NCBI GenBank assembly: GCA_005222975.1
Contig: NJBI01000068.1
Span: forward strand, 1-14,848
Length of the DNA stretch: 14,848 nucleotides
Source: Promethearchaeota archaeon Loki_b31
GTDB lineage: Archaea; Asgardarchaeota; Lokiarchaeia; Sigyniarchaeales; SOKP01
Reading direction: 5' to 3'
Shown: positions 1 to 14,848 of the stretch, piece by piece
How positions within the stretch are numbered: the stretch's first letter is position 1
Layout: the number at the start of each line of letters is the position of its first letter
Program-made: the position numbers and the translations under genes
Notes under the pieces: model-generated
The model's database searches: none
What the model was told of the DNA's origin: nothing
Seen by the model: the letters and a program-made list of their open reading frames with translations, nothing else

Positions 1-116
1 ATGAAGAATCATTTATGGAACCTTATGAAGATTCATATAAATATTGGAAAAATCCCGATGGTACTATGCATGTACCAAAAAGAGATTTAGATGATATTAT
101 TTTCAAAATTTTTTAA
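1..116 (+). CDS. 3' end of an upstream gene (partial), product unknown
   Basis: Frame starting at 3 reads EESFMEPYEDSYKYWKNPDGTMHVPKRDLDDIIFKIF and stops at TAA 114-116; open from the window edge and followed by AT-rich intergenic DNA. Confidence 0.65.
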   Translation, partial: EESFMEPYEDSYKYWKNPDGTMHVPKRDLDDIIFKIF

Positions 117-249
117 AAATTAAATAATAATTTTAAATCAAGTTTATTTCTTAAAGTCTATTTTTCCATCTCTAACGCTTCTAATCATGTTAAGAAGAAT
201 AATTGCTATTCGATAGTTCTAGGTTTATTACTTAATACACCTATTACTT

Positions 250-368
250 AATGAAACCTAGCCCCACCCTAGATTTTGTTTTTAGTTGTTTAAAGAAAAA
301 AGATCAAAAATCTTTTTTTAAACAATCTTCCCTTTGATACTTTGTAACCTAACTCAAATTTAAGGTTT
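250..368 (+). ncRNA. Candidate structured small RNA, copy 1 (CCCCACC-loop family)
   Basis: Hairpin AAUGAAAC-CUAG[CCCCACC]CUAG-AUUUUGUU (250-280); hairpin GUUGUUU..GAU[CAAAA]AUC..AAACAAU (285-326); linker CUUCCCUUU; hairpin AACCU..AGGUU (346-350/363-367). Homologous in sequence and architecture to 2093-2222 on the minus strand. Confidence 0.55.
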
Positions 369-660
369 ATTCCCCAGAATTGAGGACAAATTTTGATAAT
401 TGCATATTATGTCCTCAACATTGGAGAAAAATTATTGGTAACATTAAAAATGAGGTTCAGATTTTCGTTTTCATAAAATTAGTTTTCTTTTATATATAGA
501 AAGCGATTTTCAATAACCAAAAATTTATATAGGTTTTCTTGCTTCTATTTTTTACTGATTTGACAATAAGATTAAAAAAAAATATTTGATATTCATAAAA
601 TAGCGAGTGGTGTATGGCTCGATATCTAATTTAACAATTAAAACTTGATATAATATTAAT

Positions 661-1224
661 ATGACTCCTCAGAAAAATTCTGTTAAAAATCCTAGTTCAA
701 ATAAAAATAGTTTTAACTTAAATAATTTATCCATGCGAGAGTTTGAAACCTTTCTGATTTTTTTAAGGCACGAAGGAGAAGAATTAAGTGTTTTGAAAAA
801 ATTTATCGATTTGAGTTTTGATTATACAAGTAGAACAAAAGCTTATGATTACATCAGTAGCTTATGCAAAAAAGGTTTAGCATTTAAGAGAACGACTCTT
901 GAAAAGGGAAAAAACATAACGAGAATTTTTATCAGAAAAAAAATTAGAAAAGAATACGAAAAATTTATACTACCCACGATTGGAAGTATAAAAGAATCGC
1001 TGAAAGATGTTTTCGAAGAATACCTATATGACCTTAAAGACGTGGAAAAAATACGCGAAAAATTTAGAGCATACACAGAAACGGTTATATTATCAATTAG
1101 TAATTTATTAGTAAATGAGCCTGTAAAAACTTTAAATAGTAAACGATTCCAAAAAAAGCTATATGACACGATTTGGAAATATTTTAGAGCTGAAATGCTA
1201 AAATACGAGATGTTTTCAAAATAA
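661..1224 (+). CDS. Winged helix-turn-helix (TrmB-like) DNA-binding protein, putative transcriptional regulator
   Basis: 187 aa; SRTKAYDYISSLCKKGLAFKR resembles the TrmB-type recognition helix pattern (R-x-x-x-Y-x-x-L-x-x-L-x-x-K-G-L) followed by a wing; helical C-terminal half of unknown function. Confidence 0.6.
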   Translation: MTPQKNSVKNPSSNKNSFNLNNLSMREFETFLIFLRHEGEELSVLKKFIDLSFDYTSRTKAYDYISSLCKKGLAFKRTTLEKGKNITRIFIRKKIRKEYEKFILPTIGSIKESLKDVFEEYLYDLKDVEKIREKFRAYTETVILSISNLLVNEPVKTLNSKRFQKKLYDTIWKYFRAEMLKYEMFSK

Positions 1225-1300
1225 AAGAGAATAATTTATAAAATCTAACAAATAGTTTTAAGTGCAAATATTTAATATTTAATTAAAAAACTGGGAAAAA

Positions 1301-2023
1301 TTGTTACTTCAGAGCGCTTTAACAGAAAGAATAATTATAGTTGGTGTATTCCAGATATGGCCAATTATATATGATTCTTTTTTTGCGTATAAATTATTAA
1401 AACGCGCAAAAAATCGTTCAACAGCCACTCTAAGTTGCTTTTTTATTTTTAATGCACTTGCTTTTTTCCTTGCTCTTGTTTCAATTATTCTTGCAAATGC
1501 CCTTTTTGCATATCTCTGCTATGTAATTGCTTTTTTTATCATTATGCTCGCTCAAAGTTTTGTAGTAATATTTAGTTGGCTTATCGTAAATCTTGGCGAG
1601 AAATTATCTTACAAAAAGTATTACTTAGGGTTTTTAATTTATGGAATCATTTCAACTTATGTCTTCTGGATAGGAATATTTTTAAAAGGGATTAGATACG
1701 ATTCTAGCACAGGTTGGATACCTGTTTTTAGCTGGTTATTTCTTTTTATAAGTTGGAGCTACATAATAATTTTTTTAATCGTTCCCGAAATAATTTTAGC
1801 AGTAAAGCTAATAAATATATTTGAAGGTGTAGCACTAAAACGAAGAATTAAATTATTTATTCTTAGCGTATTCTTAGAATTTGCTATTGTACTTCTCATA
1901 GTTTTGTATAATACTGGGATAAACAATACTGTTTTCAAGGTAATTAATTTATTTCTAATGCCACCCTTAGGCACTTTAGCAGCTTATTTTATTTACAAGA
2001 GCTTTGGAAAAGGATTGGAATAA
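1301..2023 (+). CDS. Stand-alone seven-transmembrane protein (HisKA_7TM-like sensor-type membrane domain)
   Basis: 240 aa, TTG start, seven hydrophobic segments separated by short basic loops (KRAKNR, KRRIK); loop GWIPVFSW between TM4 and TM5; no cytoplasmic output domain. Confidence 0.6.
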   Translation: MLLQSALTERIIIVGVFQIWPIIYDSFFAYKLLKRAKNRSTATLSCFFIFNALAFFLALVSIILANALFAYLCYVIAFFIIMLAQSFVVIFSWLIVNLGEKLSYKKYYLGFLIYGIISTYVFWIGIFLKGIRYDSSTGWIPVFSWLFLFISWSYIIIFLIVPEIILAVKLINIFEGVALKRRIKLFILSVFLEFAIVLLIVLYNTGINNTVFKVINLFLMPPLGTLAAYFIYKSFGKGLE

Positions 2024-2092
2024 TTTAATTTGTAAATATTCAAAATTCTATTTTATACTCTTTTACTTGATTAAATTATCAATAAATAGTTT

Positions 2093-2222
2093 AAAAGGTG
2101 ACTCCTAGCCCCGGGACCTAATAATAAGGTCTGAAACTAAATAGGGAGAGAAGGGTGAAACGAGTGTGCGTTCAAACACACTACCAAAAGACAAAAATCC
2201 AGGGTGGGGCAGGAGTCTTTGT
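2093..2222 (-). ncRNA. Candidate structured small RNA, copy 2 (CCCCACC-loop family)
   Basis: GC-rich island in an AT-rich intergenic region. Terminal helix GACUCCU-GCCCC/GGGGC-U-AGGAGUC (2217-2206 with 2112-2100); hairpins AGUGUG/CACACU and GACCU/AGGUC; upstream TATA-like GAAACTTAAATTTAAAAA (2257-2240); downstream UUUU (2096-2093). Confidence 0.65.
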
Positions 2223-2239
2223 TAGGTGTTATGGTTATA

Positions 2240-2257
2240 TTTTTAAATTTAAGTTTC
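2240..2257 (-). promoter_or_regulatory. Putative archaeal BRE/TATA promoter for small RNA copy 2
   Basis: Minus strand GAAACTTAAATTTAAAAA lies about 20-25 nt upstream of the first helix; AT-rich background weakens the signal. Confidence 0.35.
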
Positions 2258-2380
2258 AATTTCTGTCGATTTTTAGCTAATTCTCCCTTTAGTTCTAATT
2301 ATTATTATTATAACATACTATAATAAACTTTTGTGTCATTTAAATTGAAGATTAAGTTGAAATTTTTTTTATGTATAATA

Positions 2381-3100
2381 TCAAGATTTTTGAAGAACAT
2401 TTAAAGCAATTTCTGTTGAAATTTTTGCTTCCTCAACGGTAACCATTCCAATCGTCGAGCAACATATATTATGCTTAGAGATATATTCAAACGCTTTAAG
2501 TGGCTCTAATTTACCTGCTGCTAAAGTTTTCATTCCTATAAAATAATGGTCTTTATGACTATTTACAATATTTTCTAACTTTTTTTGTTCTCCCATGAAC
2601 ATACCTCGAGCGTTAAAGGGAATTAGAAAAGCTTTAACATAAGGAATATGTTCGAAAGCGTATTCTAAAGTAGAAACGGGGTTATGAGCGGCAATTCCGG
2701 GAATTATCCCTCTTGACTTAATGTCGTCTAATAACTTTATTAACTTATCATCCTTCTTATCAGAAATCATTCCATGTACGAAAATTAACTTAGCATCCAG
2801 TTTTGCAAGTTCTTCAATTAAAGGATCGGGTCCAGGAAAAGTAGAGCCTATTATTATAAAATCGTTGTGAGTTTCTGCCATTATTCTGGCAGCTTCACTA
2901 ACTTTACCCGCTGGCACTAATTCTATACCACGCCCCCCAGCTTCATAGCACGCTTCTAATATCTCTAATACCGCTTCCGTGTTATGCAAAAACTTTTTGC
3001 GGTAAATTCGGGCGTTTATTCCAAACTGCGAAGCTCCAAAAAAAGGAGAAGTCCCTGTCGAAACTAATGGGATTTGTTGGCCTTTTATTTCATAAAATAT
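2381..3100 (-). CDS. Aldo/keto-reductase-like TIM-barrel protein (archaeal hypothetical family), probable ATA start, 239 aa
   Basis: The frame of ORF 2381-2989 stays open up to TGA 3109-3107, adding IFYEIKGQQIPLVSTGTSPFFGASQFGINARIYRKKF. The C-terminal GMKTLAAG and IGM..VEE motifs are AKR-like. Confidence 0.7.
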   Translation of the reverse strand: MFYEIKGQQIPLVSTGTSPFFGASQFGINARIYRKKFLHNTEAVLEILEACYEAGGRGIELVPAGKVSEAARIMAETHNDFIIIGSTFPGPDPLIEELAKLDAKLIFVHGMISDKKDDKLIKLLDDIKSRGIIPGIAAHNPVSTLEYAFEHIPYVKAFLIPFNARGMFMGEQKKLENIVNSHKDHYFIGMKTLAAGKLEPLKAFEYISKHNICCSTIGMVTVEEAKISTEIALNVLQKS

Positions 3101-3120
3101 AATATATCACTTTAATTTGT

Positions 3121-3153
3121 TAATATTGACGATTAGTTTTAACTTCTTTTTTT
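3121..3153. repeat. 33-bp direct repeat, left copy
   Basis: TAATATTGACGATTAGTTTTAACTTCTTTTTTT, identical to 3502-3534. Confidence 0.95.
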
Positions 3154-3242
3154 TATATTTTTGTAAAGATTTAAATTTTTTGTCAGTATGATAAGAATGA
3201 ATAATTTTAAAATATTAAAAAAAACATAAATGAGGAATAAAA

Positions 3243-3458
3243 ATGATTTTTCAAGAGACTATTCAAAAGCTTATGTTTGTAATTACATGGTTTAATGTAA
3301 TTATTATAATAGTCATTATTTGTGTAATATCAATAGCTATAGCTGTATGGGTTTACAACGATGCTAAGAAAAGAGATATGAATGCTGTAGTGTGGTTATT
3401 AATTGTGTTATTAACTAGCTGTGTCGGATGCATTATATATTTGATAGTTAGAGAATAG
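3243..3458 (+). CDS. Small membrane protein, PLDc_N-like two-helix hairpin
   Basis: 71 aa with the W-V-Y-x-D-A-K-K-R ... W-L-L-I-V ... G-x-I-I-Y-L-I-V-R pattern; GAGGA motif upstream of the ATG. Confidence 0.8.
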   Translation: MIFQETIQKLMFVITWFNVIIIIVIICVISIAIAVWVYNDAKKRDMNAVVWLLIVLLTSCVGCIIYLIVRE

Positions 3459-3501
3459 TCATAAGAAGATTTTGGAAGTAAAAGTAGATTAAAGACATTC
3501 C

Positions 3502-3534
3502 TAATATTGACGATTAGTTTTAACTTCTTTTTTT
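3502..3534. repeat. 33-bp direct repeat, right copy
   Basis: Identical to 3121-3153, 381 bp downstream. Confidence 0.95.
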
Positions 3535-3538
3535 ATTT

Positions 3539-4528
3539 TTAATTCACTTTTGTTTTTGTATGTTTTTGTTTTAATAAAGAGAAGAAGTCGGATAAATCGA
3601 TATTTCCCCCGCTAATTATAAGCCCAATTTTTTTACCTTTAATTAACGATGGTTCTATATCACCGTACAATAATCCTGCTAAGGGAACTGCTCCCGAAGG
3701 TTCTACAACTAATTTCATGCGTTCCCAATAGAATTTCATTGCGTCAATAATTTGTTCTTCGGTCACCGTAATAATATCGTCGACGAACTCTTTGATTATA
3801 GGAAATGTTTTTTTCCCCACTGAAATTCTCAATCCATCAGCAATAGTATTTGGGTTTTCTACGGGTACCCTCTTTCCTAATTGAAACGACCTAAATGTAT
3901 CGTCAGCGTTTTTAGGTTCTACACCAATGACTTTGATTCTCGGTTTCAACCCTTTAGCTGCTATAGAGCATCCACTAATTAACCCACCTCCACCAACAGG
4001 GACAAGTAATAAGTCTAGAGCTCTATAATCGCTGATAAATTCATAAGCAGTAGTTCCCGCACCAAAAATTACGTTATAGTCGTCGAAAGGGTGAATTAGT
4101 CTATAATCGTTCTGTTTTATTAATTCAGCGGATAATTTGTCTCGATCACCCGGCTGGTTCCCACATAAAACGATTTCAGCTCCATAACCGCGTGTAGCAG
4201 TTATTTTAGCCGGTGTCGCATTATTGGGCATGACAATTGTAGCTTTAATGTGTAAAATTTTAGCTACTAAAGCAACCGCTTGAGCAAAGTTCCCTGACGA
4301 GTGAGCAATAATTCCCCTCTCCATTTCTTGCGAAGGTATGTGACTTATACAATTCCAAGCCCCCCTGAACTTAAACGAACCTGTTCGTTGAAAATTTTCA
4401 CATTTTACTATTACTCGTTTTGCACTTGTCAACGAATCTAAAGTTCTGCTAGTCATCAATGGCGTTAGGTTTGCAACATGGGACACTATTTTTTCGGCAA
4501 GTTTTATGTTTTTAAATATTTTAATCAA
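3539..4528 (-). CDS. PLP-dependent serine/threonine dehydratase family enzyme (short form; serine racemase / hydroxyaspartate ammonia-lyase-like)
   Basis: KCENFQRTGSFKFRGA (PLP lysine), SSGN, VGGGGL, TIADGL, EPSGA and SGGN motifs; no C-terminal ACT domain. Confidence 0.92.
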   Translation of the reverse strand: MIKIFKNIKLAEKIVSHVANLTPLMTSRTLDSLTSAKRVIVKCENFQRTGSFKFRGAWNCISHIPSQEMERGIIAHSSGNFAQAVALVAKILHIKATIVMPNNATPAKITATRGYGAEIVLCGNQPGDRDKLSAELIKQNDYRLIHPFDDYNVIFGAGTTAYEFISDYRALDLLLVPVGGGGLISGCSIAAKGLKPRIKVIGVEPKNADDTFRSFQLGKRVPVENPNTIADGLRISVGKKTFPIIKEFVDDIITVTEEQIIDAMKFYWERMKLVVEPSGAVPLAGLLYGDIEPSLIKGKKIGLIISGGNIDLSDFFSLLKQKHTKTKVN

Positions 4529-4665
4529 CCTCTTAATCGTCGTTTATAAATATATTGTTCAATTTAGAGTTTTTATTTGTTTTTATTTGTTAGTAATAAT
4601 AAATGTGTGTAATCTTAAAAAAAATGCTTAAAATTTGAATGTTCAAAATTGAATTTAAATAATAA

Positions 4666-4770
4666 AAAAACAATTTAATAATTCTTACTCCGAAAATCGG
4701 TCATATGATTCAATACGAAGCCTATGAAGATTATACAAAAGCAATTGAAGACTTTTTAAAAACCCTCTAA
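4666..4770 (+). pseudogene. C-terminal remnant of an alpha/beta hydrolase
   Basis: Reads LIILTPKIGHMIQYEAYEDYTKAIEDFLKTL*, the typical G-H-x-x-x-x-E...I-x-x-F-L end of alpha/beta hydrolases; in-frame TAA at 4663-4665 directly upstream and no N-terminal part. Confidence 0.65.
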
Positions 4771-5148
4771 AAATCATAAACCAACTCTTTTTTTTGCCAA
4801 TCTATAATTAGTACTTGATTAAATAATAATAAACCTCCTTCCTATTAATTTTTTAGTTCGACAAAACTTTAAAATGGGCATGTCGGTATTTATGAATTAT
4901 CGTAATACGGTTAACAAGACAATTTTGAAGAGTTCTTTGAAATAAGCCATCTTATGATATCGATTTGAGACTTAGTTGATTTTCTATAGCTTTTTTTAAT
5001 GTTTTCCTTGAGGTGGAGTGCCCAAACAACAAAGAGATTGATAGTCTACTGAACAAAAAATTAATAGATAAAATGAGATCAATCTAAATTTTTAGCAAAA
5101 TAAGAAAAAAAAATATTAGAAATAATTATAGGATTTAAGTTTAATTTA

Positions 5149-5994
5149 TTATTTCCTCTTTCTTCTTATTAATACTACGACTACAACGCCTATTACTGCT
5201 CCTCCGCCAATAACCGAAGCTATAATAATTAATCCGAAAGGAATTGCTCCTCCCCTCTTTTGGACTTGTATAACCGCCAAGCCGGAATTACCATCCGCCA
5301 CATAGGCGTAATCTCCGCTTACGTAAACGCCAAGGGCATCTCCTGTCGTGTCTTCGTAGACGGGCGTTTCAGGGTTTGTCGGGTCTGAAACATCGATAAC
5401 CGCTAATCCACTAGCTTCATCCGCCATGTAGGCGTAATCTCCGCTCACGTAAACGCCACACGCATATCCGGTCGTGTCTTCGTAGACGGGCGTTCCCGGG
5501 TTTGTTGGGTCGGAAACATCGATGACCGCCAATCCGCTGGCATCATTCGCCACATAGGCGTAATTTCCGCTCACGTAAACGCCACACGCATATCCGGTCG
5601 TGTCTTCGTAGACGGGCGTTCCCGGGTTGGTCAGGTCAGAAACATCGATGACCGCCAATCCACTGTAAAGATCTGCCACATAGGCGTAATTTCCGCTCAC
5701 ATAAACGCCAAGTGCATATCCAGTCGTGTCTACGTAGACGGGCGTTCCCAGGTCTATAGGCACGGAAACATCGATGACCGCCAATCCCGAAGTATAATCC
5801 GTGTTTTCGTAATAAATAGAACATTCTTGGGGTGGTCGTGTATTAATAATCTCGTTAGGATTCTTCTCGTAGATGGGAATTCCGAGATCTCTCTGAATAC
5901 TTATTAACAAATTTGGAATTACGATAAACATTGAAATCAGTAGAATAACCAGCAAGAAATTTATTTTTTTTGATTTCTTTTTTGATTTCTGCAT
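5149..5994 (-). CDS. LVIVD-repeat (beta-propeller) cell-surface protein with N-terminal signal anchor and C-terminal TM anchor
   Basis: Basic and hydrophobic N-terminus; 42-aa repeats SGLAVIDVSDPTNPGTPVYEDTTGxAxGVYVSGxYAYVADxx; C-terminal hydrophobic helix followed by RRKRK. Confidence 0.9.
   Translation of the reverse strand: MQKSKKKSKKINFLLVILLISMFIVIPNLLISIQRDLGIPIYEKNPNEIINTRPPQECSIYYENTDYTSGLAVIDVSVPIDLGTPVYVDTTGYALGVYVSGNYAYVADLYSGLAVIDVSDLTNPGTPVYEDTTGYACGVYVSGNYAYVANDASGLAVIDVSDPTNPGTPVYEDTTGYACGVYVSGDYAYMADEASGLAVIDVSDPTNPETPVYEDTTGDALGVYVSGDYAYVADGNSGLAVIQVQKRGGAIPFGLIIIASVIGGGAVIGVVVVVLIRRKRK
5270..5790. repeat. Coding tandem repeat, 126-bp unit, about 4 copies
   Basis: TAGGCGTAAT recurs at 5303, 5429, 5555 and 5681 (period 126). 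Confidence 0.95.
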
Positions 5995-6084
5995 TAATTT
6001 ACACCACTATCTTTAATTTTCTTAAAGATATCGTTTTAATATTAAGATACTATTACTTTTAAAGAATGAGATCGGTAATTGAAA

Positions 6085-6272
6085 ATGACAGCTTTCCGTT
6101 GCCCTCGCTATAATGGAAAGAAAATTATAGCGACTCTTTCGAACGTGCTGAATCTAATTTAAAATTTAATAAAGCCGATTTAGAAAAGTTTGGCAAATCG
6201 AACATATTAGCCTTTGAAGAAAAGAAAAGTACTTTAGAAGTGCTAAAAGAAAATAGAGGAATTAGAGAATAA
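6085..6272 (+). pseudogene. Frameshifted, degenerate small zinc-ribbon protein gene
   Basis: MTAFRCPRYNGKKII, then a frame change near 6124-6130 to YSDSFERAESNLKFNKADLEKFGKSNILAFEEKKSTLEVLKENRGIRE*. CPRY and RAES are consistent with decayed CxxC pairs; TAT, CGT and TCT are each one change from TGT. Confidence 0.55.
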
Positions 6273-6307
6273 AAGTAATTTTTTATTTATTTAGTCAAGT
6301 ACCGATA

Positions 6308-6427
6308 ATGGAAAAATCAAATTTACCAAAAATTGGATAATATTCAAATATTGATATTTGAACCGGCGAGCTTCAAGAATACATTAAATTTAAATTAAAT
6401 AAAGAAAAAAGAAGATTAATATATTGA
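6308..6427 (+). pseudogene. Possible decayed small ORF
   Basis: MEKSNLPKIG*YSNIDI*TGELQEYIKFKLNKEKRRLIY* in one frame with two internal stops; family not recognised. Confidence 0.25.
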
Positions 6428-6487
6428 CATTCAAATAAATAAAAAACTAAAAATGGTAAGTTGATTGTAATACCCTTTTTTATTCTT

Positions 6488-7663
6488 CTATTTTTCCAAT
6501 ATTGTGGTATTATTTATAGCGAATCTATCCAAAGCATTTTCGTCTAGTTTTACACCCCATCCAGGACCCTCAGGAACTTTTGCCATTCCATTATTATAAT
6601 CTATAGGCTTTAAAATTAGATCATCTTCTAACATTTCTTGTCCAAATAATTCTGTCGCGTAATCAATAAACGGATATTTTGCGGTTACAAAGTGAATATG
6701 CATCGCTGTGGCAATTCCTAACGGTTGGTTATGTAAAACAACGCCTAAACCACGCATTTTTGCGTAATCCAAGGCTTTCAGGGCTTTAGTTACTCCTCCT
6801 GGACGATCAGAGTTTAGCCCTAAAACTCTTACTGCTTTTAATTCGACTAGCGTAATAAAATCTTTTAACGAAAAAAATCCCTCGTGAGACATTAAAGGGA
6901 CATTAACTCTACTTTGAACGTAAGCCATTCCTAAATAGTCCGAAGCATTCACTGGTTCTTCGGCAAAGTCAATTCCGTAAGGTTCAATGGCTTTGATAGC
7001 TCGAACGGCCATTGAAGGACTATAAGCTTGATTGTAATCTACGCGTAAATTAATTTTGTTTCCAAAAATTTTCCTTATTGCTTGTAAGATTTTTACGTCG
7101 TCTTCAACGCTTTTTCCGAGCTTTAGTCGAAAATTTCTAAACCCTTTTTTGTAATAGGTTCTTACAAGTCCTTTCATTAACATTGGGTCTCCTAAAGGTA
7201 TAAGCGCCGCTAAAGGAATCTTATCTACGAACTTTCCCCCCATGTAATAACACGCAGGTAAATCAGTTATTTGACCCATTAAATCGTAGCAAGCCATATC
7301 GATCATTCCTTTTGCTGCTTCGTTACGCGCCAAGTTTACATCCATCCGATAATTTATCTTTTCGATATTGAATGGGTTTTCACCTAAAATATACTTCGCT
7401 AAACAATTTTTTATTGCATCAATAATCTGGTTGGGCGATATGCCAGTCTCAGGTAACCAAAGAAAAGCTTCTCCTAATCCTATATTTCCAAGTTTACTAA
7501 TGAGTTTACAAACTACGAAATCTCCCCCAAGCCATGCCTCTTCTGCAGCAATTGCCATTCCTAAATTCCCTTCCCCTTCGCCCATTGCCTTTATAACGTA
7601 GTCTTTAAATGGTACATGTAAAGGAGTTAATTCAATGCTAGTTATTTCATCTTTTATAGTCAT
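6488..7663 (-). CDS. Enolase superfamily, muconate-lactonizing-enzyme / epimerase subgroup protein
   Basis: GxGLGEA capping domain, IDMACYDL.G, RVDYNQ, EEP and VPEGPGWGV.LD motifs. Confidence 0.92.
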   Translation of the reverse strand: MTIKDEITSIELTPLHVPFKDYVIKAMGEGEGNLGMAIAAEEAWLGGDFVVCKLISKLGNIGLGEAFLWLPETGISPNQIIDAIKNCLAKYILGENPFNIEKINYRMDVNLARNEAAKGMIDMACYDLMGQITDLPACYYMGGKFVDKIPLAALIPLGDPMLMKGLVRTYYKKGFRNFRLKLGKSVEDDVKILQAIRKIFGNKINLRVDYNQAYSPSMAVRAIKAIEPYGIDFAEEPVNASDYLGMAYVQSRVNVPLMSHEGFFSLKDFITLVELKAVRVLGLNSDRPGGVTKALKALDYAKMRGLGVVLHNQPLGIATAMHIHFVTAKYPFIDYATELFGQEMLEDDLILKPIDYNNGMAKVPEGPGWGVKLDENALDRFAINNTTILEK

Positions 7664-7733
7664 ATTAAATCAAATAGTTTTATTTTGGTAATACTAAAAA
7701 TAAAAAAAAAATTAAATTAATAATTTATTGATT

Positions 7734-9800
7734 TTAGAACGGACCACCTAAGCTCATAAAAACGCAGGGGTGATCAGCAGCGGTTCCTCCTGTGTATGTG
7801 ATAAAAGTAACTGATGTATTAAGCTCCCCAGATACGAAGATATGATCAATTCTTCCATCTGGAAGTCTAGTCTCCCAACCTTCGGGAACATTGCCAATTG
7901 TCTTTCCTATAGTAGGAGCAACTTCCCAACAATCGTATAATTGTGCTACTGTTATATTGTATTGTTCGGTACCAAGTTCAAAGTTAAAATCCCCCATTAA
8001 TATTACATTGCTCAAACCGTTAATTACCGATAAAATATTTTCTTGTTGGACAATTTGCGAACGATCTTCTGCAGGGTCCTCGTAATTTCCGAGGTGGGTA
8101 ACGAAGATATTGAATGTAGTGCTTCCAACAAATATTTGAGCCCATATCGTTGCTGTTTGTTCGCCCTCGCTTTCCATATAAAAGGTTTGAGGGTTCAAGA
8201 TCGGATATTTTGAAAGCAATGCAATTCCAAAAGTCCCAGTTAATGTTTTTGGTCCATAGTATGAATATAACTTCAATCGATTACTAACGAATCTTACAAT
8301 GTCTGAATTACCACTTGAAATTCTACAAGTATCTGATTCTTGTAATCCTATGATATCGGCATTCAGATCTTTGATGACTTGGTATTGAGCGTCAAAATTT
8401 TTGTTACCAGTTTCGTCTGATCCTTGCTGTATGTTATATGACAAGACTCTTAAAGAATCTCCAGATACATTGTGATCTATAGGGAATTCTAAAGCTACGG
8501 CTCCTATAATAGTCGCTAAACTAATTATTACAATTATTAACAAGGCTTTTTTTTTGTTTTTGACGATTGAATTAATTGATTCAAATGTACCTCTTGAAGC
8601 TTTGTTTATTAAAAAGAGCGGTAAGAACACTAACACTCCTAAGATAAGGAATATAACCCAAATTGCGTCTCTAAATAAATCTCCGATTAAAGGAATGTAA
8701 TCCCAAACAATCGTAAATACCGCAGATAAAATCATAATTAGGAAAAAGCCAGACGAGACAAAAAAACTACCACCTAATTTTCTTATACCTGGTCTACTTC
8801 TAAACAATTCACTCGATAGTAAGATGAAATCAAGTAAAATTATTGGGCTTAGAACTAGCATTATCATTAGCATTGCTTCGTTTAACATATTCGCGTCAGG
8901 AGTAAAGAATGGATAAGACGGAACAAAGGCAAAGATTACAGTATTGCCTAATATGGTTAAAATTAGAGTCACAATAAAAGTAAGATTCCAAATAGTAACT
9001 ATATATGATTTCAATTTCCCTATTATGCCCGGGTTAGAGATTACGAGAATTATAAAAGCAGAATTCATTAATACGAGAAGGGTTAGAATTAAAATGTAGT
9101 TTGATTCCGTCCACCTTGCTATAACTGTAGGGCTACTAAATACGAAATATATTAGAGTTATCACGCTTATCATCCCTAGAGTTAGTCCAATAATTTTCCA
9201 TTTGCTTGCTGGTTTAAAGTTACTTTTAGTTAAGTCGTTTGAAGGGGTTGAGATTTGCTCTGAAATTGGTAAATGGATTATCATCAATCCCGCAAATATT
9301 GCTAATATCCACCCAATCCACATGAACCAACTATATGCAGATAGATCAATAGAAGATCCCAGTGTTCGCAATAAAATCGATAATAATAATCCTAAACCTA
9401 ACCCAGCTCCTAATAAAATTCCGTTGCTTTCGTAGTTTCCTTTTGTTTTTTTATGAAGATAAAGAGGAAAAAAAATCATAAAACAGCCCAATCCGAATCC
9501 AGTAACAAGCATTTTTAGTTGAACATCTAAAAAAGGTTGTAAAACTCTACAAATAACAAAAATCTCACCGATTGCGATAAAGGCTTTGTTAGGAAAACCT
9601 CTTTTAAAGAATAAAAGTAAAAAAGGAGTCAAAAGAAATAACAAAGCTAAGACATTTTCGTTCAATTCCACTTCAATAAGATTTAACGCATATATAGATT
9701 CTAAGAACTCTGTCATGAGTTGGAAGAAGAATAGGAACATTATACTGAGAAAGATTAATTCTGAATAGAATTTATTAATAAATTTGTTATAGATTTCCAT
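7734..9800 (-). CDS. Multi-pass membrane protein with C-terminal endonuclease/exonuclease/phosphatase domain, Cwh43/PGAP2-interacting-protein-like
   Basis: About 430 hydrophobic residues followed by SYNI, DIIGLQESD, GIALLSKYPI, THLG, MGDFN, RIDHIF and DH motifs. Confidence 0.85.
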   Translation of the reverse strand: MEIYNKFINKFYSELIFLSIMFLFFFQLMTEFLESIYALNLIEVELNENVLALLFLLTPFLLLFFKRGFPNKAFIAIGEIFVICRVLQPFLDVQLKMLVTGFGLGCFMIFFPLYLHKKTKGNYESNGILLGAGLGLGLLLSILLRTLGSSIDLSAYSWFMWIGWILAIFAGLMIIHLPISEQISTPSNDLTKSNFKPASKWKIIGLTLGMISVITLIYFVFSSPTVIARWTESNYILILTLLVLMNSAFIILVISNPGIIGKLKSYIVTIWNLTFIVTLILTILGNTVIFAFVPSYPFFTPDANMLNEAMLMIMLVLSPIILLDFILLSSELFRSRPGIRKLGGSFFVSSGFFLIMILSAVFTIVWDYIPLIGDLFRDAIWVIFLILGVLVFLPLFLINKASRGTFESINSIVKNKKKALLIIVIISLATIIGAVALEFPIDHNVSGDSLRVLSYNIQQGSDETGNKNFDAQYQVIKDLNADIIGLQESDTCRISSGNSDIVRFVSNRLKLYSYYGPKTLTGTFGIALLSKYPILNPQTFYMESEGEQTATIWAQIFVGSTTFNIFVTHLGNYEDPAEDRSQIVQQENILSVINGLSNVILMGDFNFELGTEQYNITVAQLYDCWEVAPTIGKTIGNVPEGWETRLPDGRIDHIFVSGELNTSVTFITYTGGTAADHPCVFMSLGGPF

Positions 9801-9865
9801 ATTAAAATTTAATATTTTAGAAATATATAAACTTTTAAAATAATCTAAAAATTAAAGTGAAAATT

Positions 9866-10711
9866 ATGAGTAAAATAATTAAAAAGGTCGCAATAATTGG
9901 AGCGGGCTTTACTGGAAAGCAAATTGCAGCAATAGCTGCTTTATATGATTTTAATGTATCTCTTTTTGATATAAATATTGATACTCTAGCGGAAGCGAAA
10001 AAATACATATCTGGATTTTTAAAAAGAAAGAAGAAAAATGACGCCCTTAAGAATGTCTCCTATTATAGTGATATGTCTGAAGCAGTTTCGGATGTAGATT
10101 TAGTAATCGAAGCAGTTCCAGAAAATCTCGAATTAAAAAGAAAAGTGTTTTCTCAAATTGATAGCTTAGCCCCTGCAAAGACTATTATTGCTACTAATAG
10201 TTCTTCTTATCCCGTTTCGAGAATTGAATCTGCAGTCAAAAGAAAAAATAAAGTTCTAAATATTCATTTTTATCCTCCAATTCCTACACGACCAATGGCA
10301 GATATTATGCGTGGAAGTGAGACTAGCGATGAAACTTTTGAAATTGGAAAAAATTGGATAATAAATATTGGATGCGAACCTCTTATAGTGAAAAAAGAAT
10401 GTTTTGGTTTTGTTTTCAATAGAATATGGCACGCTGTAAAAAAAGAATGTCTTAAAATGTGGGCCGGAGGTTATGCAGATATAGAAGTTATTGATACAGC
10501 TTGGAAAATATTTACTAAAATGAAATTGGGGCCATTTACTATGATGGATGGCATCGGTTTAGATGTTGCATATGCTGTAGAAATGTCATATTATAAAGAG
10601 AGTGGAGACCCAAAAGACAAACCACCGCAAGCTTTTAGGGCGATGGTGGAACGAGGAGATTTAGGCTTAAAAACGGGTAAGGGATTTTATACTTGGAAAA
10701 AAAAGAAATAA
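9866..10711 (+). CDS. 3-hydroxyacyl-CoA dehydrogenase family NAD-dependent oxidoreductase
   Basis: GAGFTG Rossmann motif, EAVPE, ATNSSS, HF, GFVFNR, GPF..MD.IGLD, G.KTGKGFY. ATG 9866 is preferred over GTG 9857 because AAGTGA serves as the RBS. Confidence 0.92.
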   Translation: MSKIIKKVAIIGAGFTGKQIAAIAALYDFNVSLFDINIDTLAEAKKYISGFLKRKKKNDALKNVSYYSDMSEAVSDVDLVIEAVPENLELKRKVFSQIDSLAPAKTIIATNSSSYPVSRIESAVKRKNKVLNIHFYPPIPTRPMADIMRGSETSDETFEIGKNWIINIGCEPLIVKKECFGFVFNRIWHAVKKECLKMWAGGYADIEVIDTAWKIFTKMKLGPFTMMDGIGLDVAYAVEMSYYKESGDPKDKPPQAFRAMVERGDLGLKTGKGFYTWKKKK

Positions 10712-10722
10712 TTTTTTTTATT

Positions 10723-11658
10723 TTAGACTCCTAAGATTAATATTAAGACCCATATAAGACCAAAACTAATTATAATTGACAGGTTTACAATCATCGTCAC
10801 TAATTTTTGATCGTAATCGTATTCTACAGAGAATGGTATAACCGCAAGACCCACAGGCAAAAGTAAAGAAAGGCAAATAATAATCCTAAAAAGTGGGTCA
10901 AATAAGCTTGTCGGTAGAAAAAAGAATAATATTAACCCTACAAATAATCCTAACGCATATCTTAGCATAAGAACTTTAATTATTGATATCCATTCAGCTT
11001 TACCGAATTTAAAATTAAGAAAAATTCCCAATAATAACAACGCTAAAGCTGTATTTGCTCTTGCTAATACATCTATTAACTCAGAGAAAATAATTGGGAT
11101 TGTAAATCTCGAAAAATTTATCGTAAGAGCGATAACATAGCTCATTAAAGGAGCAGACTTGATTAAACGCTTTAATATGAATCTAAAATCGATTTTAACG
11201 CCTTTTTCGTGATTTTTCGGAGAATAGATCGATGCTAAAATATAACATAATACGAAAATCGTAAAAGCATTACCTGCGTCAACAAGAGCAATATATCGCA
11301 TTCCATCGGCGCCCCAAATGCCTTCTACTAGCGGAAAAAAGAAATGTGCGATGTTAAATCCTACCATAGTCATAATCATCGCTCCCTTTAAACGATTCGG
11401 ACGCTTTCTAAAACTTAATATTCCAATTGCGGCCATTCCAAGGCCAAAAGCTAAATTAACTAAAGGTAGTAACATTAATGACAATTCAAATTGGATTGTA
11501 CAGGTAAATTTAAGAATTACTGCTGGCAAAGTAACGTTAAAGATGATTTTAGCAATAACATCCCCATTTTCTTCTTTAATTATTCCTAATCTTTTAATTA
11601 AATAACCAATAGCAACGATAAAGATTGATATCAAAAAAACGACATTTACGTCAGTCAT
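10723..11658 (-). CDS. AEC (auxin efflux carrier) family secondary transporter
   Basis: 311 aa, about 10 TM helices, IGY..KR.G, VTLPA.I, GFN...F..PL and ALLLLG motifs. Confidence 0.85.
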   Translation of the reverse strand: MTDVNVVFLISIFIVAIGYLIKRLGIIKEENGDVIAKIIFNVTLPAVILKFTCTIQFELSLMLLPLVNLAFGLGMAAIGILSFRKRPNRLKGAMIMTMVGFNIAHFFFPLVEGIWGADGMRYIALVDAGNAFTIFVLCYILASIYSPKNHEKGVKIDFRFILKRLIKSAPLMSYVIALTINFSRFTIPIIFSELIDVLARANTALALLLLGIFLNFKFGKAEWISIIKVLMLRYALGLFVGLILFFFLPTSLFDPLFRIIICLSLLLPVGLAVIPFSVEYDYDQKLVTMIVNLSIIISFGLIWVLILILGV

Positions 11659-11770
11659 ACCAGCGTTAATTAATGTTTTTTTAGTAGATTATTAAAATAT
11701 TTAAAATAATTAAATAATTATTTAATCCTAAAAATTAAAATAATAAAGAATACATTAAAAGTGAGGAAAA

Positions 11771-12685
11771 TTGAAACCTAATCTACTTTCAGATAAAAAA
11801 GTAATAATTACGGCAGCAATTACCGGTGGAATTCATGGTAAATGGGCTAATCCCGCTTTACCATTAACTGCCGAAGAACAAGCACAAGCTGCGCTAGAAT
11901 GTTATGAAGCGGGGGCTTCAATTGTTCATATTCATGTTCGTGGCGATGATGGTCAAAATACTCCTGATTTAAAATATTACGGTAAAACAGTAAAGCAAAT
12001 TGGGGAAAAATGTCCCATATTAAGACAAATAGGAAATGGGATCGGTGCTAAAGTTGTAGAACATTCATTTACCACCAAATCTGGTAAAAAAAGAGTTACG
12101 ACGGAAATTGTCCAACCCTCTTTAGAAGAACGATTAAACCTAATAAATATAGAACCCGAACCTGAAATGCATACTATTAATGCTGGTTCATTCGAATTTA
12201 GAACTCCCTATGGAGGATCGCTATTCCTAAATCCACAAGATTTCAATCGTAAATATATTAAAAGGTGCAACAAAAAAGGGTTTGGCATAGAAATCGAGGT
12301 GTACGATTCGAGCCATATTACTAATGTTTTAGAATTTGTTGAAACCGGGCTCTTAACACCCCCTCTACACTTTAGTTTAGTATTAGGTATTAAAGGAGGC
12401 GCTGAGGCTAATCCTGCTAACCTTTTACGCATGGTTGATCAAATACCAGAAGGATCAACATGGCAAGTAGTTACCGTTGGCAAATTCAATTTGCGTACGA
12501 CTGTAATGGCTATGTGTATGGGAGGTAATGTAAGAACTGGTTTGGAAGATACTATTTATTATGGAAAAGGAGAACTTGCTCAAGGTAATGCTCAACTAGT
12601 AAAAAGAATGGTTAGGATAGCTAAAGAAATCGGAAGAGAAGTCGCTACTGTTGATGAAACTAAACAAATTTTAGGAATAATATAA
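11771..12685 (+). CDS. Beta-keto acid cleavage enzyme (BKACE/DUF849, 3-keto-5-aminohexanoate cleavage enzyme family)
   Basis: IITAAITG, LP.T.EE, AGASIVHIHVR (Zn-binding HxH), EIEVYD, GGNVRTGLED, N.QLV.R, GREVAT. Confidence 0.93.
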   Translation: MKPNLLSDKKVIITAAITGGIHGKWANPALPLTAEEQAQAALECYEAGASIVHIHVRGDDGQNTPDLKYYGKTVKQIGEKCPILRQIGNGIGAKVVEHSFTTKSGKKRVTTEIVQPSLEERLNLINIEPEPEMHTINAGSFEFRTPYGGSLFLNPQDFNRKYIKRCNKKGFGIEIEVYDSSHITNVLEFVETGLLTPPLHFSLVLGIKGGAEANPANLLRMVDQIPEGSTWQVVTVGKFNLRTTVMAMCMGGNVRTGLEDTIYYGKGELAQGNAQLVKRMVRIAKEIGREVATVDETKQILGII

Positions 12686-12799
12686 AAATTGTTGGAGTTA
12701 TTCAACGTAACTTATTTTTTGGACATTACCATAATTTCATACTAACATTTATTAAGTGAAGTTAGATCATAATATATAGCACTATTGAGAGTGAATTTG

Positions 12800-13243
12800 A
12801 TGAGTAGAAAAAAAATCACTTGGTTTGGATTTAACTTAACGCAAAAACAATCTGTACAAATATTTATATTATCAATTGCAGGACTCTTCATTTCAGCATT
12901 TTTGTTTATGACGATGTTATACCCATTAATGATGAACATCATGTATAACGATCCTTATTATTATCCGGAGGATTACTTTATTATGATGCTTTTTAGTATG
13001 CTTCCTTATATGTTTGTATTTTGTGGCGTATTTGTATTAAGTCTTTATTCCTTGATTCGATGCAGAAAAATAGCTAAATATTACTCTCCCTCAATTGATC
13101 CTGTGATAGAACAGAAACCAAAATCCTCTCATACTGAACAAAAACCGAAATCCATTGCTCAATTTTGTTCTAACTGTGGTGAAATGAAGAAAAGTCATGA
13201 AAGATTTTGTACTAATTGTGGGCATCAAGTAGGGTATCAATAA
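12800..13243 (+). CDS. Two-TM membrane protein with C-terminal zinc ribbon
   Basis: Two hydrophobic helices, then FCSNCG...FCTNCG; ATG 12800 is preceded by GAGTGA. Confidence 0.8.
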   Translation: MSRKKITWFGFNLTQKQSVQIFILSIAGLFISAFLFMTMLYPLMMNIMYNDPYYYPEDYFIMMLFSMLPYMFVFCGVFVLSLYSLIRCRKIAKYYSPSIDPVIEQKPKSSHTEQKPKSIAQFCSNCGEMKKSHERFCTNCGHQVGYQ

Positions 13244-13278
13244 AAAAAATAAAAAAAATAATAATATTTACTTTAAGC

Positions 13279-14682
13279 TCAGTTTTTTTTCAATTCTTCT
13301 CTTATGCGTTCAAGTCTTTCTCCATGTAAACCATAAGATTTCATGGCTAGAAGTCCAATTACAAGTGCGATACTAGGAAAGATAACCATTATGGCTTTTA
13401 GACCTAATATAACTAAAAATGGATCTGAAGGTAAGGGATCAAATTGTTTGTCCCAACCTATATTTCCAAACATGAGTCCAATAGTTAAAATGACTAAGAT
13501 TATTGAGATTCGATGAATAAATGCGTTAATTCCATAAAAGCTTGCAGATCGCTTAACTCCAAATTTAACTGCGTCTTCGTCTATAACATCAGCGTGTAAA
13601 ATGTCTACGTAAAACAATGCTCCCGACAATGGAAATCCTTGAAGTGCTATAAGAAGAATAAAAGCGATTTGAAATGCTTCTCCAGTAATAAATAAGAATG
13701 GAAACAGCGTACAAATCCAAATTCCTAATGTTATCATGAAAGCTTTTCGCATTCCGTATTTAAAGCCAAGTTTTTTGTGAATTGGCATGACAAGTGCAGC
13801 AATGATAAAAGCTAACATTAGCGCTATCCCGACTATAATTGAGCCGCCTCCCGCAAAAAGAGGACCTCCAATAACGAATTCAGCGTAAATGGGAATAATC
13901 ATAGGTAAAATCGAAAAACAATACCAAACCGCTGTATTTGCTACAACAAATTTTATAAATATTTTATTAGTCAATGTAATTTTCATTGATTGAAAAAACG
14001 ATGGTCTTTTTTCGAAATCTTCCGCCATTTCTACTTTCTCTTCAATCCCCTTCAAAAGAAACGGTATTGAGATTATAAGAGTAAAAATTGCTATGACGAT
14101 CGCCATCGTAAAATATTGGCTTTTAGCGAAGGGAATTGCGTCGTCTGCTGGAACGTAATCGGAAATAAATATCATCGGAATAAGTGAGCTTAAAATTAAG
14201 GCAACTACGGTTAGACCTTTTATAAATAAATTGGTATTAGCTCTCTGTTTCTCATTTGGGAACATTTCTGGGAAAATTGCGTTCACGTTCACATCAAACA
14301 TAGTATAGAAGAACTCAAAGATAACAATCGTTGATAAGAAGTAAAAACTCTAGCATTTTATCACTTGTATTGAAAGGCATGTAGAACATTAAAACCACCA
14401 TAACGCATAACGAGATTATCGAAAGGAGTAGATAAAACCTCCTTTTTCCCACTTTTCTCTATGTTTGGTCCTTTCCGAGAGCGCTCCGAGCATTGGGTCG
14501 TTAACTGCATTCCATATACCCCAAATAATGTATGTAATTATCATTAAAAGCAAAGGTATTTTGACGACTGTAAAATAGAAGGTAAAAATCAAGAATTGAA
14601 AGATTTGGTAAGTAAGCTGGTCCGGAAATGCACTAAGCCCAAAAAGGAATTTTTTCTTAAATGTTAATTTCTCTTCACTCAT
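13279..14682 (-). pseudogene. GPH-family MFS (sugar/glycoside-cation symporter) gene interrupted by two frameshifts (pseudogene or sequencing error)
   Basis: N-terminal WNAVNDPMLGALSERT motif in 14416-14682. The bridge KRRFYLLLSIISLCVMVVLMFYMPFNTSDKMLEF lies in another frame between homopolymers at 14443-14450 and 14343-14347, then rejoins YFLSTIVIFEFFYTMFDV of ORF 13279-14301, which carries ADVIDED...G.KR..SFYG. Confidence 0.85.
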
Positions 14683-14848
14683 ATTTTTTATCCCTAAATT
14701 GTAATTAAATTTTAATTAAATTTGATTACATTATATCGTATTTAAAATTATGCATAAATGAAGTTAATAAAGAGCTCTTAAAAGGTTAATTCTGAAACTC
14801 TCTTCTAATGATATTCAATTATATCATATCTTACATCTAAGTTTTCTT

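Follow-up and report, generated by a model that had tools for sequence, protein, structure and literature searches.

Two related elements were analysed in a 14,848-nt stretch of DNA from Promethearchaeota archaeon Loki_b31 (contig NJBI01000068.1, positions 1 to 14,848 of the forward strand; hereafter the window). They are called here copy 1 (251-378, plus strand) and copy 2 (2093-2217, minus strand). To judge by its sequence, copy 2 is a full member and a working gene of a multi-copy family of structured small RNAs, the U-box RNAs. On balance, we read copy 2 as a working gene of an uncatalogued Lokiarchaeia family, copy 1 as a likely pseudogene, and the RNA as a protein-docked scaffold with an Sm-like protein as the candidate partner. 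An earlier note on this DNA had presented the two elements as candidate undescribed sibling small RNAs. This stands for copy 2, which is undescribed, structured and independently transcribed by its looks. Copy 1 is a degenerate relic, and the real siblings of copy 2 are five full-length copies on other contigs of the same genome (77-82% identity).

Copy 2 spans ~125 nt, from GACUCC to ACCUUUU, and was matched by our covariance model R1 with 123.8 bits (E 1e-31). It lies in a GC-rich island (~2100-2220) with a GC content of 0.44-0.46, compared with ~0.25 in the surroundings. Folding of the region gave a z-score of -3.96 on the minus strand versus -1.9 on the plus strand, and on the minus strand the minimum-energy structure made up 22% of the ensemble. 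The 5' and 3' ends are closed by helix P1, in which GACUCCU-GCCCC (2206-2217) pairs with GGGGC-U-AGGAGUC (2100-2112). The 3' strand has a bulged U and was recovered by folding, covariation and mutual information. The GCCCC/GGGGC part of P1 is specific to the clade and replaces the CC-CCA/UGG-U-GG of other copies. After two to three junction bases, P1 is followed by the U-box, CCUGGAUUUUUGUCUUUUGG (2184-2203), an exact match to the 20-mer core of the family that contains AUUUUUG. Next come the P3 hairpin AGUGUGU/GCACACU (2163-2182; covariation and mutual information), the pyrimidine-rich linker J3/4, CGUUUCACCCUUCUCUCCCUAUUUAGUUUCA (2132-2162; columns conserved at 60-90%), and the P4 hairpin GACCU/AGGUC with a 7-nt loop (2115-2131). 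The tail ACCUUUU (2093-2099), a conserved NCC and then a U run, follows the family tail consensus (C)ACC(C)UUU and is a likely termination site.

A TATA-like box, UUUAAAAAUAUAA, was read at 2235-2247 on the minus strand (-30 to -18 relative to the first G of P1, ~27 nt ahead of it). Most other copies have AAUAAAAUA at the same place. Both this box and the downstream ACCUUUU had been pointed out before and were found again. A scan for bacterial-type promoters and terminators was uninformative, the host being an archaeon. The paralogues have unrelated neighbours, no protein family recurs beside them, and copy 2 is bracketed by a TATA-like box and a U run; copy 2 is therefore best described as a free-standing gene, neither a leader nor a transposon. 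As a separate observation, the P1 3' strand together with the tail (2093-2112 in the window, and the 3' ends of the family) often reads GGAGUCACCU or GGAUCACCU. These words resemble the 3' end of the 16S rRNA of the genus (GGAUCACCUCCU, locus L267) by reading alone, which may be coincidence.

Covariation was scored in 103 copies aligned to the covariance model; the alignment was fitted to the model, so the figures lean towards it. Standard pairs occupied 96% of the cells, against 81% in shuffles and 39-55% in controls with slid partners. Double compensatory changes were found in all 20 modelled pairs (242 cells), with 10 of 10 pairs in P1. In P3, 5 of 5 modelled pairs covaried (mutual-information pairs 38-54 to 44-48), and in P4 also 5 of 5, with 97.9% of the cells paired. 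Mutual information over all column pairs recovered exactly P1, P3 and P4, and it gave no internal pseudoknot beyond these. In one copy, P1 was lengthened by matching ACAC/GUGU insertions on both strands. The cells with G-U or U-G outnumbered those with A-C or C-A by 83 to 21, which argues that the RNA is the C-rich strand. The strand assignment of the earlier note, also made from G-U pairs, was thereby borne out.

The U-box, AUUUU(U)GUCUUUU(U)GG in its general form, sits between P1 and P3, and copy 2 carries it exactly (2203-2184). Its conservation was read from two sets of copies that had not been selected for it. It was invariant in 35 same-genus copies found by BLAST and near-invariant in 35 copies from five other genera found with the model. 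The loci fetched from genome contigs by the exact 20-mer are not usable as an argument here, their U-box invariance being partly circular. In the sister family of Lokiarchaeia, the box was reduced to AUUUUGUCUUUUUGG, and the minimal form AUUUUGUCUUUU(U)GG was kept. In both families, P3 is followed by another short motif, (C)UGAUUU. Some copies reach a length of 140-160 nt (L150, L141, L067, L146, L148, L153), with an extra hairpin in the linker or just after P3.

From these data, the conserved functional core appears to be the U-box and the closing helix, rather than the C-rich motifs CCCCACC and ACACCU. CCCCACC had been proposed as an invariant 7-nt loop on a stem. In the family alignment, that hairpin had no covarying pair, its centre pair did not form in 92 of 98 sequences, and any change on the 5' side broke its pairs. 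CCCCACC instead comprises the junction and the inner part of the P1 5' strand, whose bases covary with the 3' end of the RNA. The word itself was present in 5 of 103 and in 0 of 35 members; elsewhere CCCCGCC, CUACCGC, CCUACAC or GCGCCAC were read. The ACACCTA that precedes both copies turned out to be a coincidence, with a different origin at each. Before copy 1, it was made by a window-specific tandem duplication of 15-16 nt, which adds 16 bases relative to loci L065 and L176. This direct duplication of UAUUACUUAAU (227-252, plus strand; period 15), just upstream of copy 1, was identified by comparison with sister species. It is absent from two of them and is therefore a recent slippage event. 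Before copy 2, ACACCTA lies in the variable spacer between the TATA-like box and P1 and differs among orthologues.

The similarity between 257-286 (plus) and 2213-2183 (minus), the starting point of the earlier note, is present and not due to chance. Its 10-mer GCCCCACCCT occurs only three times in the 3.5-Mb genome: once in copy 1, at a distance of 1.9 kb from copy 2, and twice in full copies of the family. BLAST and nhmmer searches with copy 2 did not detect copy 1, and no other relatives of copy 1 were found in the source genome. The covariance models aligned copy 1 end to end (251-378) at 13.3 and 15.0 bits, with E values of 0.035-0.07 in the window and 7.7 genome-wide. In two sister species, copy 1 is found at the same place, also inverted, with a 5' end that still reads AUGACUCCUAGCCCC. 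For this reason, we regard it as a true old paralogue of the family.

The layout of copy 1 can still be followed on the plus strand. A P1 5'-like part (253-265) is followed by an eroded U-box (267-285), an AU-rich hairpin (286-325), a pyrimidine tract (326-337) and a weak hairpin (346-367). It was thus correctly noted that in both copies a hairpin comes after the U-rich tract, and then a pyrimidine linker. The U-box of copy 1 has two substitutions and two deletions, and its P3 has become a long hairpin made only of A and U, with U7 at its end. The P1 3' strand is gone and the GC-rich helices are lost, with the GC content (0.30) at background level. In the sister species, both P1 and the last hairpin of copy 1 are unpaired. 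The compensatory change once seen between AACCU/AGGUU (copy 1) and GACCU/AGGUC (copy 2) does not hold, as sister species have AAGCUU there, which breaks the copy 1 hairpin. Taken together, these features make copy 1 a probable pseudogene.

The family was widespread in the relatives of the source organism. Orthologues of copy 2 (96-99% identical) were found in 4-6 sister species, and 35 of 36 genomes within the genus had homologues. The source genome has six full family copies, copy 2 included. In the same GTDB family, a search with R1 located the RNA in 119 of 126 genomes, with 1-18 copies each. The exact 20-mer core was found in at least 120 stretches of species-representative genomes; among the matches listed, nearly all were Asgard metagenome-assembled genomes. 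In the sister family, a filtered model search found the RNA in 1 of 13 genomes, and then in 3 of 14 with a second model, R2. The minimal-core pattern ATTTTGTCTTTTN{0,1}GG matched in 5 of 5 sister-family genomes, 1-5 times each (reversed control, 0-1), and these sites were full-length members, of a more diverged form, at 24-40 bits (R2, filters off). Single-contig genomes of the sister family also contain the RNA.

Model and pattern searches in 10-11 genomes of the other five GTDB families of the class gave no convincing member, and a single weak partial match was seen among five genomes of three other families of the class. Some of the matches carry the NCBI labels Hermod-, Hod-, Thor- or Odinarchaeota. 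These labels do not show presence outside Lokiarchaeia. Viral contigs had 14 exact U-box matches, of which only one was a convincing full member. It is found on an IMG/VR contig of 224,826 bp that is classed as viral (L229, 6-140, minus strand) and scored 41.9 bits.

Neither Rfam 15 nor the literature searched contains the U-box RNA family. Rfam 15 gave no match to the window at the gathering thresholds, to either element at E<10, or to eight diverse members at E<0.5. ARAGORN called no tRNA at either element, and no description of the U-box RNA was found in the literature searched. New points of this analysis are the verdict on copies 1 and 2, the refutation of the CCCCACC loop and the strand call from G-U counts. 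To these are added two points described below, a covarying complementarity between leader and linker that includes the window's own motif, and an extra hairpin of the sister family in which the C-rich tract is locked up. Of all known archaea, Lokiarchaeia are some of the closest to eukaryotes, and their non-coding RNAs are almost entirely unexplored. With up to 18 copies per genome and a presence in almost all genomes of two large families, the RNA must presumably do something central.

As to function, conserved single strands are framed here by freely covarying helices, and thus would be recognized by a protein or a partner nucleic acid. P1 brings the ends of the RNA together, with P3, P4 and the two conserved single strands inside. 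In the reading that we favour, the result would be a stable scaffold RNA, in which the U-box (AUUUUUG-UCUUUUGG) and the UGAUUU after P3 form a putative protein docking site. The leading candidate for the partner is an archaeal Sm-like (SmAP/Lsm) ring, and three LSM-fold genes were found in the source genome. The pyrimidine linker could serve as a pairing surface, either for purine-rich partners or for the RNA's own upstream leader. With 16S rRNA, neither the U-box nor the linker gave better duplex energies than shuffled queries. A particle of the Ro/Y-RNA type is unlikely, as there is no TROVE (Ro) gene in the source genome.

Besides the model-fitted alignment and the partly circular U-box set mentioned above, several points weigh against the favoured reading. 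Since nearly all archaea have LSM genes, finding them here has no power to discriminate. Where the Sm consensus RAU3-6GR has its last purine (PMC2582628), the U-box is followed by a U, and the sister-family box is also preceded by a U. As for copy 1, each of its core changes occurs singly in bona fide members, and some residual activity may remain.

A bolder form of the idea, in which the U-box RNAs are archaeal Sm-class particles with the AU5G box encircled by a SmAP ring, in the lineage of archaea nearest to eukaryotes, is a speculative one, and we hold it to be rather unlikely. The linker would then be the working surface, and the self-complementary leader would control it in some copies. 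If true, the U-box RNAs would represent a prokaryotic counterpart, and possibly a forerunner, of particles of the small nuclear ribonucleoprotein type.

The leader itself gave rise to another explanation. A motif 60-77 nt upstream of copy 2, AGAACUAAAGGGAGAA (2281-2296, minus strand), is complementary to the gene's own J3/4 linker. RNAduplex gave -19.8 kcal/mol for this pair, compared with -8.7 +/- 2.3 kcal/mol for shuffles, none of 300 being as good. The mature RNA may thus be cut from a longer precursor, whose 5' leader pairs with the linker. Such pairing would be a pseudoknot or an alternative fold, masking the linker until processing or setting up autoregulation. The window motif carries the changes that match the linker variant of its own clade, UCUCCC...UUUAGUU. 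It is invariant in 7 orthologues, with variable flanks and a variable distance to P1 (33-63 nt), and a conserved TTTATTATA-like block lies ~25 nt upstream of it.

Among 98 copies, 26 had a strong ungapped duplex between positions -60 to -1 and the linker. At the same threshold, the controls gave 3 (-120 to -61), 6 (reversed sequence) and 0 (shuffles); the copies are related, so the independence of these counts is overstated. The pairing also covaries, UAAUAUAGGG going with CCCUAUAUUA and CAAAAUAGGG with CCCUAUUUUG. In many other copies, an equivalent motif, AAAUAAAAUAGGG, is found at -33 to -20 and covaries with the linker. Across copies, the spacing of the upstream motif to P1 varies between 20 and 44 nt, and the motif is therefore more than a TATA box for a start at P1. 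The sister family has an internal partner instead. On the other hand, about three quarters of the copies have no such partner within 120 nt, and in most copies the motif sits at the expected TATA position, so that its A/U complementarity is partly trivial. Overall, we give the precursor explanation a low probability. The upstream motif itself, with its complementarity to the linker, offers experiments a concrete new starting point.

Two further features were seen in this upstream region. Some copies (L049, ~1560-1625; L038) are directly preceded by short tandem duplications of the first bases of the gene (AAAUGACUCCUAAAAUGACUCC), which alter the spacing between the upstream motif and P1. The copies at the lipid synthase locus (L002, L037-L052) have two conserved direct repeats, AAGAUAAAAAUUU, at about -125 and -85. 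These lie upstream of the complementary motif and could act as promoter or regulator sites of a longer transcript.

The C-rich motifs had led to the proposal of two sibling trans-acting RNAs, in which the CCCCACC loop, ACACCU and CUCCCU would pair with ribosome-binding sites. This has some footing only for the J3/4 linker. Its consensus contains CCUCCUCCC, the motif of the cuckoo RNAs (PMC4615179), in 38 of 103 members, and CCUCC is present in 59 of 103. The 16S rRNA of the genus ends in GGAUCACCUCCU, and Shine-Dalgarno motifs are enriched before long open reading frames (ORFs) of the source genome (GGAGG, 74 vs 9; GGTG, 142 vs 24). However, CCCCACC lies in helix P1 and is not conserved, and ACACCTA is coincidental. 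The linker of the window copy reads CCCUUCUCUCCC, without CCUCC, and copy 1 is degenerate. In the sister family, an extra covarying hairpin after UGAUUU pairs the C-rich tract with an internal G-rich partner, for example CCUCC-UUCG-GGAGG, CCCC/GGGG or CCUCUUC/GAAGAGG (loci L275, L276, L281-L287, L182, L183 and L273). These hairpins suggest that the C-rich tract is meant to be paired. The invariant part of the RNA, moreover, is U-rich. Overall, trans-acting pairing with ribosome-binding sites appears improbable as the role of these RNAs.

Even less probable is an element acting at the DNA level, either a miniature transposon with P1 as its terminal inverted repeats or a recombination or attachment site, with copies 1 and 2 as the inverted ends of a 1.9-kb cassette. 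The element is indeed multi-copy and has terminal inverted repeats of 12-13 bp, and its two copies in the window lie in inverted orientation on either side of two orphan ORFs. These ORFs, 661-1224 and 1301-2023 (187 and 240 aa), gave no Pfam family at E<0.01, and nothing that would mark a cassette was found in the segment between the copies. The repeats change by compensatory substitutions with a G-U bias on one strand, unlike protein-bound transposon ends, and the loci keep their synteny between species. There was no sign of a transposase or an integrase, nor of a target duplication at the ends of the element. No neighbouring protein recurs, and copy 1 is without the second repeat. A DNA-level element is thus largely refuted.

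A cis-regulatory leader or riboswitch for a flanking gene, to which only the constant proximity of one orthologous copy to a radical-SAM lipid synthase gene would point, is similarly improbable, as the paralogues have unrelated neighbours in both orientations, the closing helix is followed by a U run, and copy 2 converges on the end of ORF 1301-2023 and so leads no gene. Clustering of the ORFs around 112 copies gave no conserved partner gene, only locus-specific neighbours without relation to one another (the radical-SAM enzyme, orphans and spurious frames). Elsewhere in the window, ARAGORN called a tRNA-Ser (GGA) at 11381-11468 (minus strand), inside a long minus-strand ORF (10723-11658); one of the two calls may be spurious.

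Among known systems, the Hgc-type RNAs are similar by composition. These are GC-rich structured small RNAs of AT-rich archaea, which were found by their composition. Copy 2 likewise forms a GC-rich island in an AT-rich intergenic region, with promoter-like and terminator-like signals of its own. There is no relation to them in sequence or structure, and Rfam, which holds the Hgc families, gave no match.

The cuckoo RNAs of alphaproteobacteria have 2-4 hairpins with CCUCCUCCC in each loop (PMC4615179). They share with the U-box RNAs the presence of multi-copy siblings with variable stems, and the same nine-base anti-Shine-Dalgarno-like word is found in the linker of many U-box members. In the U-box RNAs, however, the word occurs once, in the linker between helices rather than in hairpin loops, and its tract is paired in the sister family. 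The U-box RNAs also differ by their closed three-way junction, their archaeal host and the lack of an Rfam match. Membership of the window copies in the cuckoo or staphylococcal UCCC RNAs was rejected; the cuckoo word is in neither copy, and Rfam gave no match.

The third comparison is with the small nuclear RNAs (snRNAs) of the Sm class (U1, U2, U4, U5). The U-box RNA is likewise a small, stable-looking, multi-copy RNA, with a single-stranded AU5G (GGAUUUUUGU) between the helices P1 and P3, and its host encodes three LSM-fold proteins. The Sm site is RAU3-6GR flanked by stem-loops (PMC2582628). In copy 2, GAUUUUUG-U offers the 5' purine, the U5 and the G, but not the 3' purine, and has P1 and P3 on its two sides. 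Here the invariant box extends further, with UCUUUUGG as its second part, and the Rfam searches gave no sequence or model similarity to snRNAs. If its partner is an Sm-like ring, the origin of Sm-class RNA-protein particles would become directly testable.

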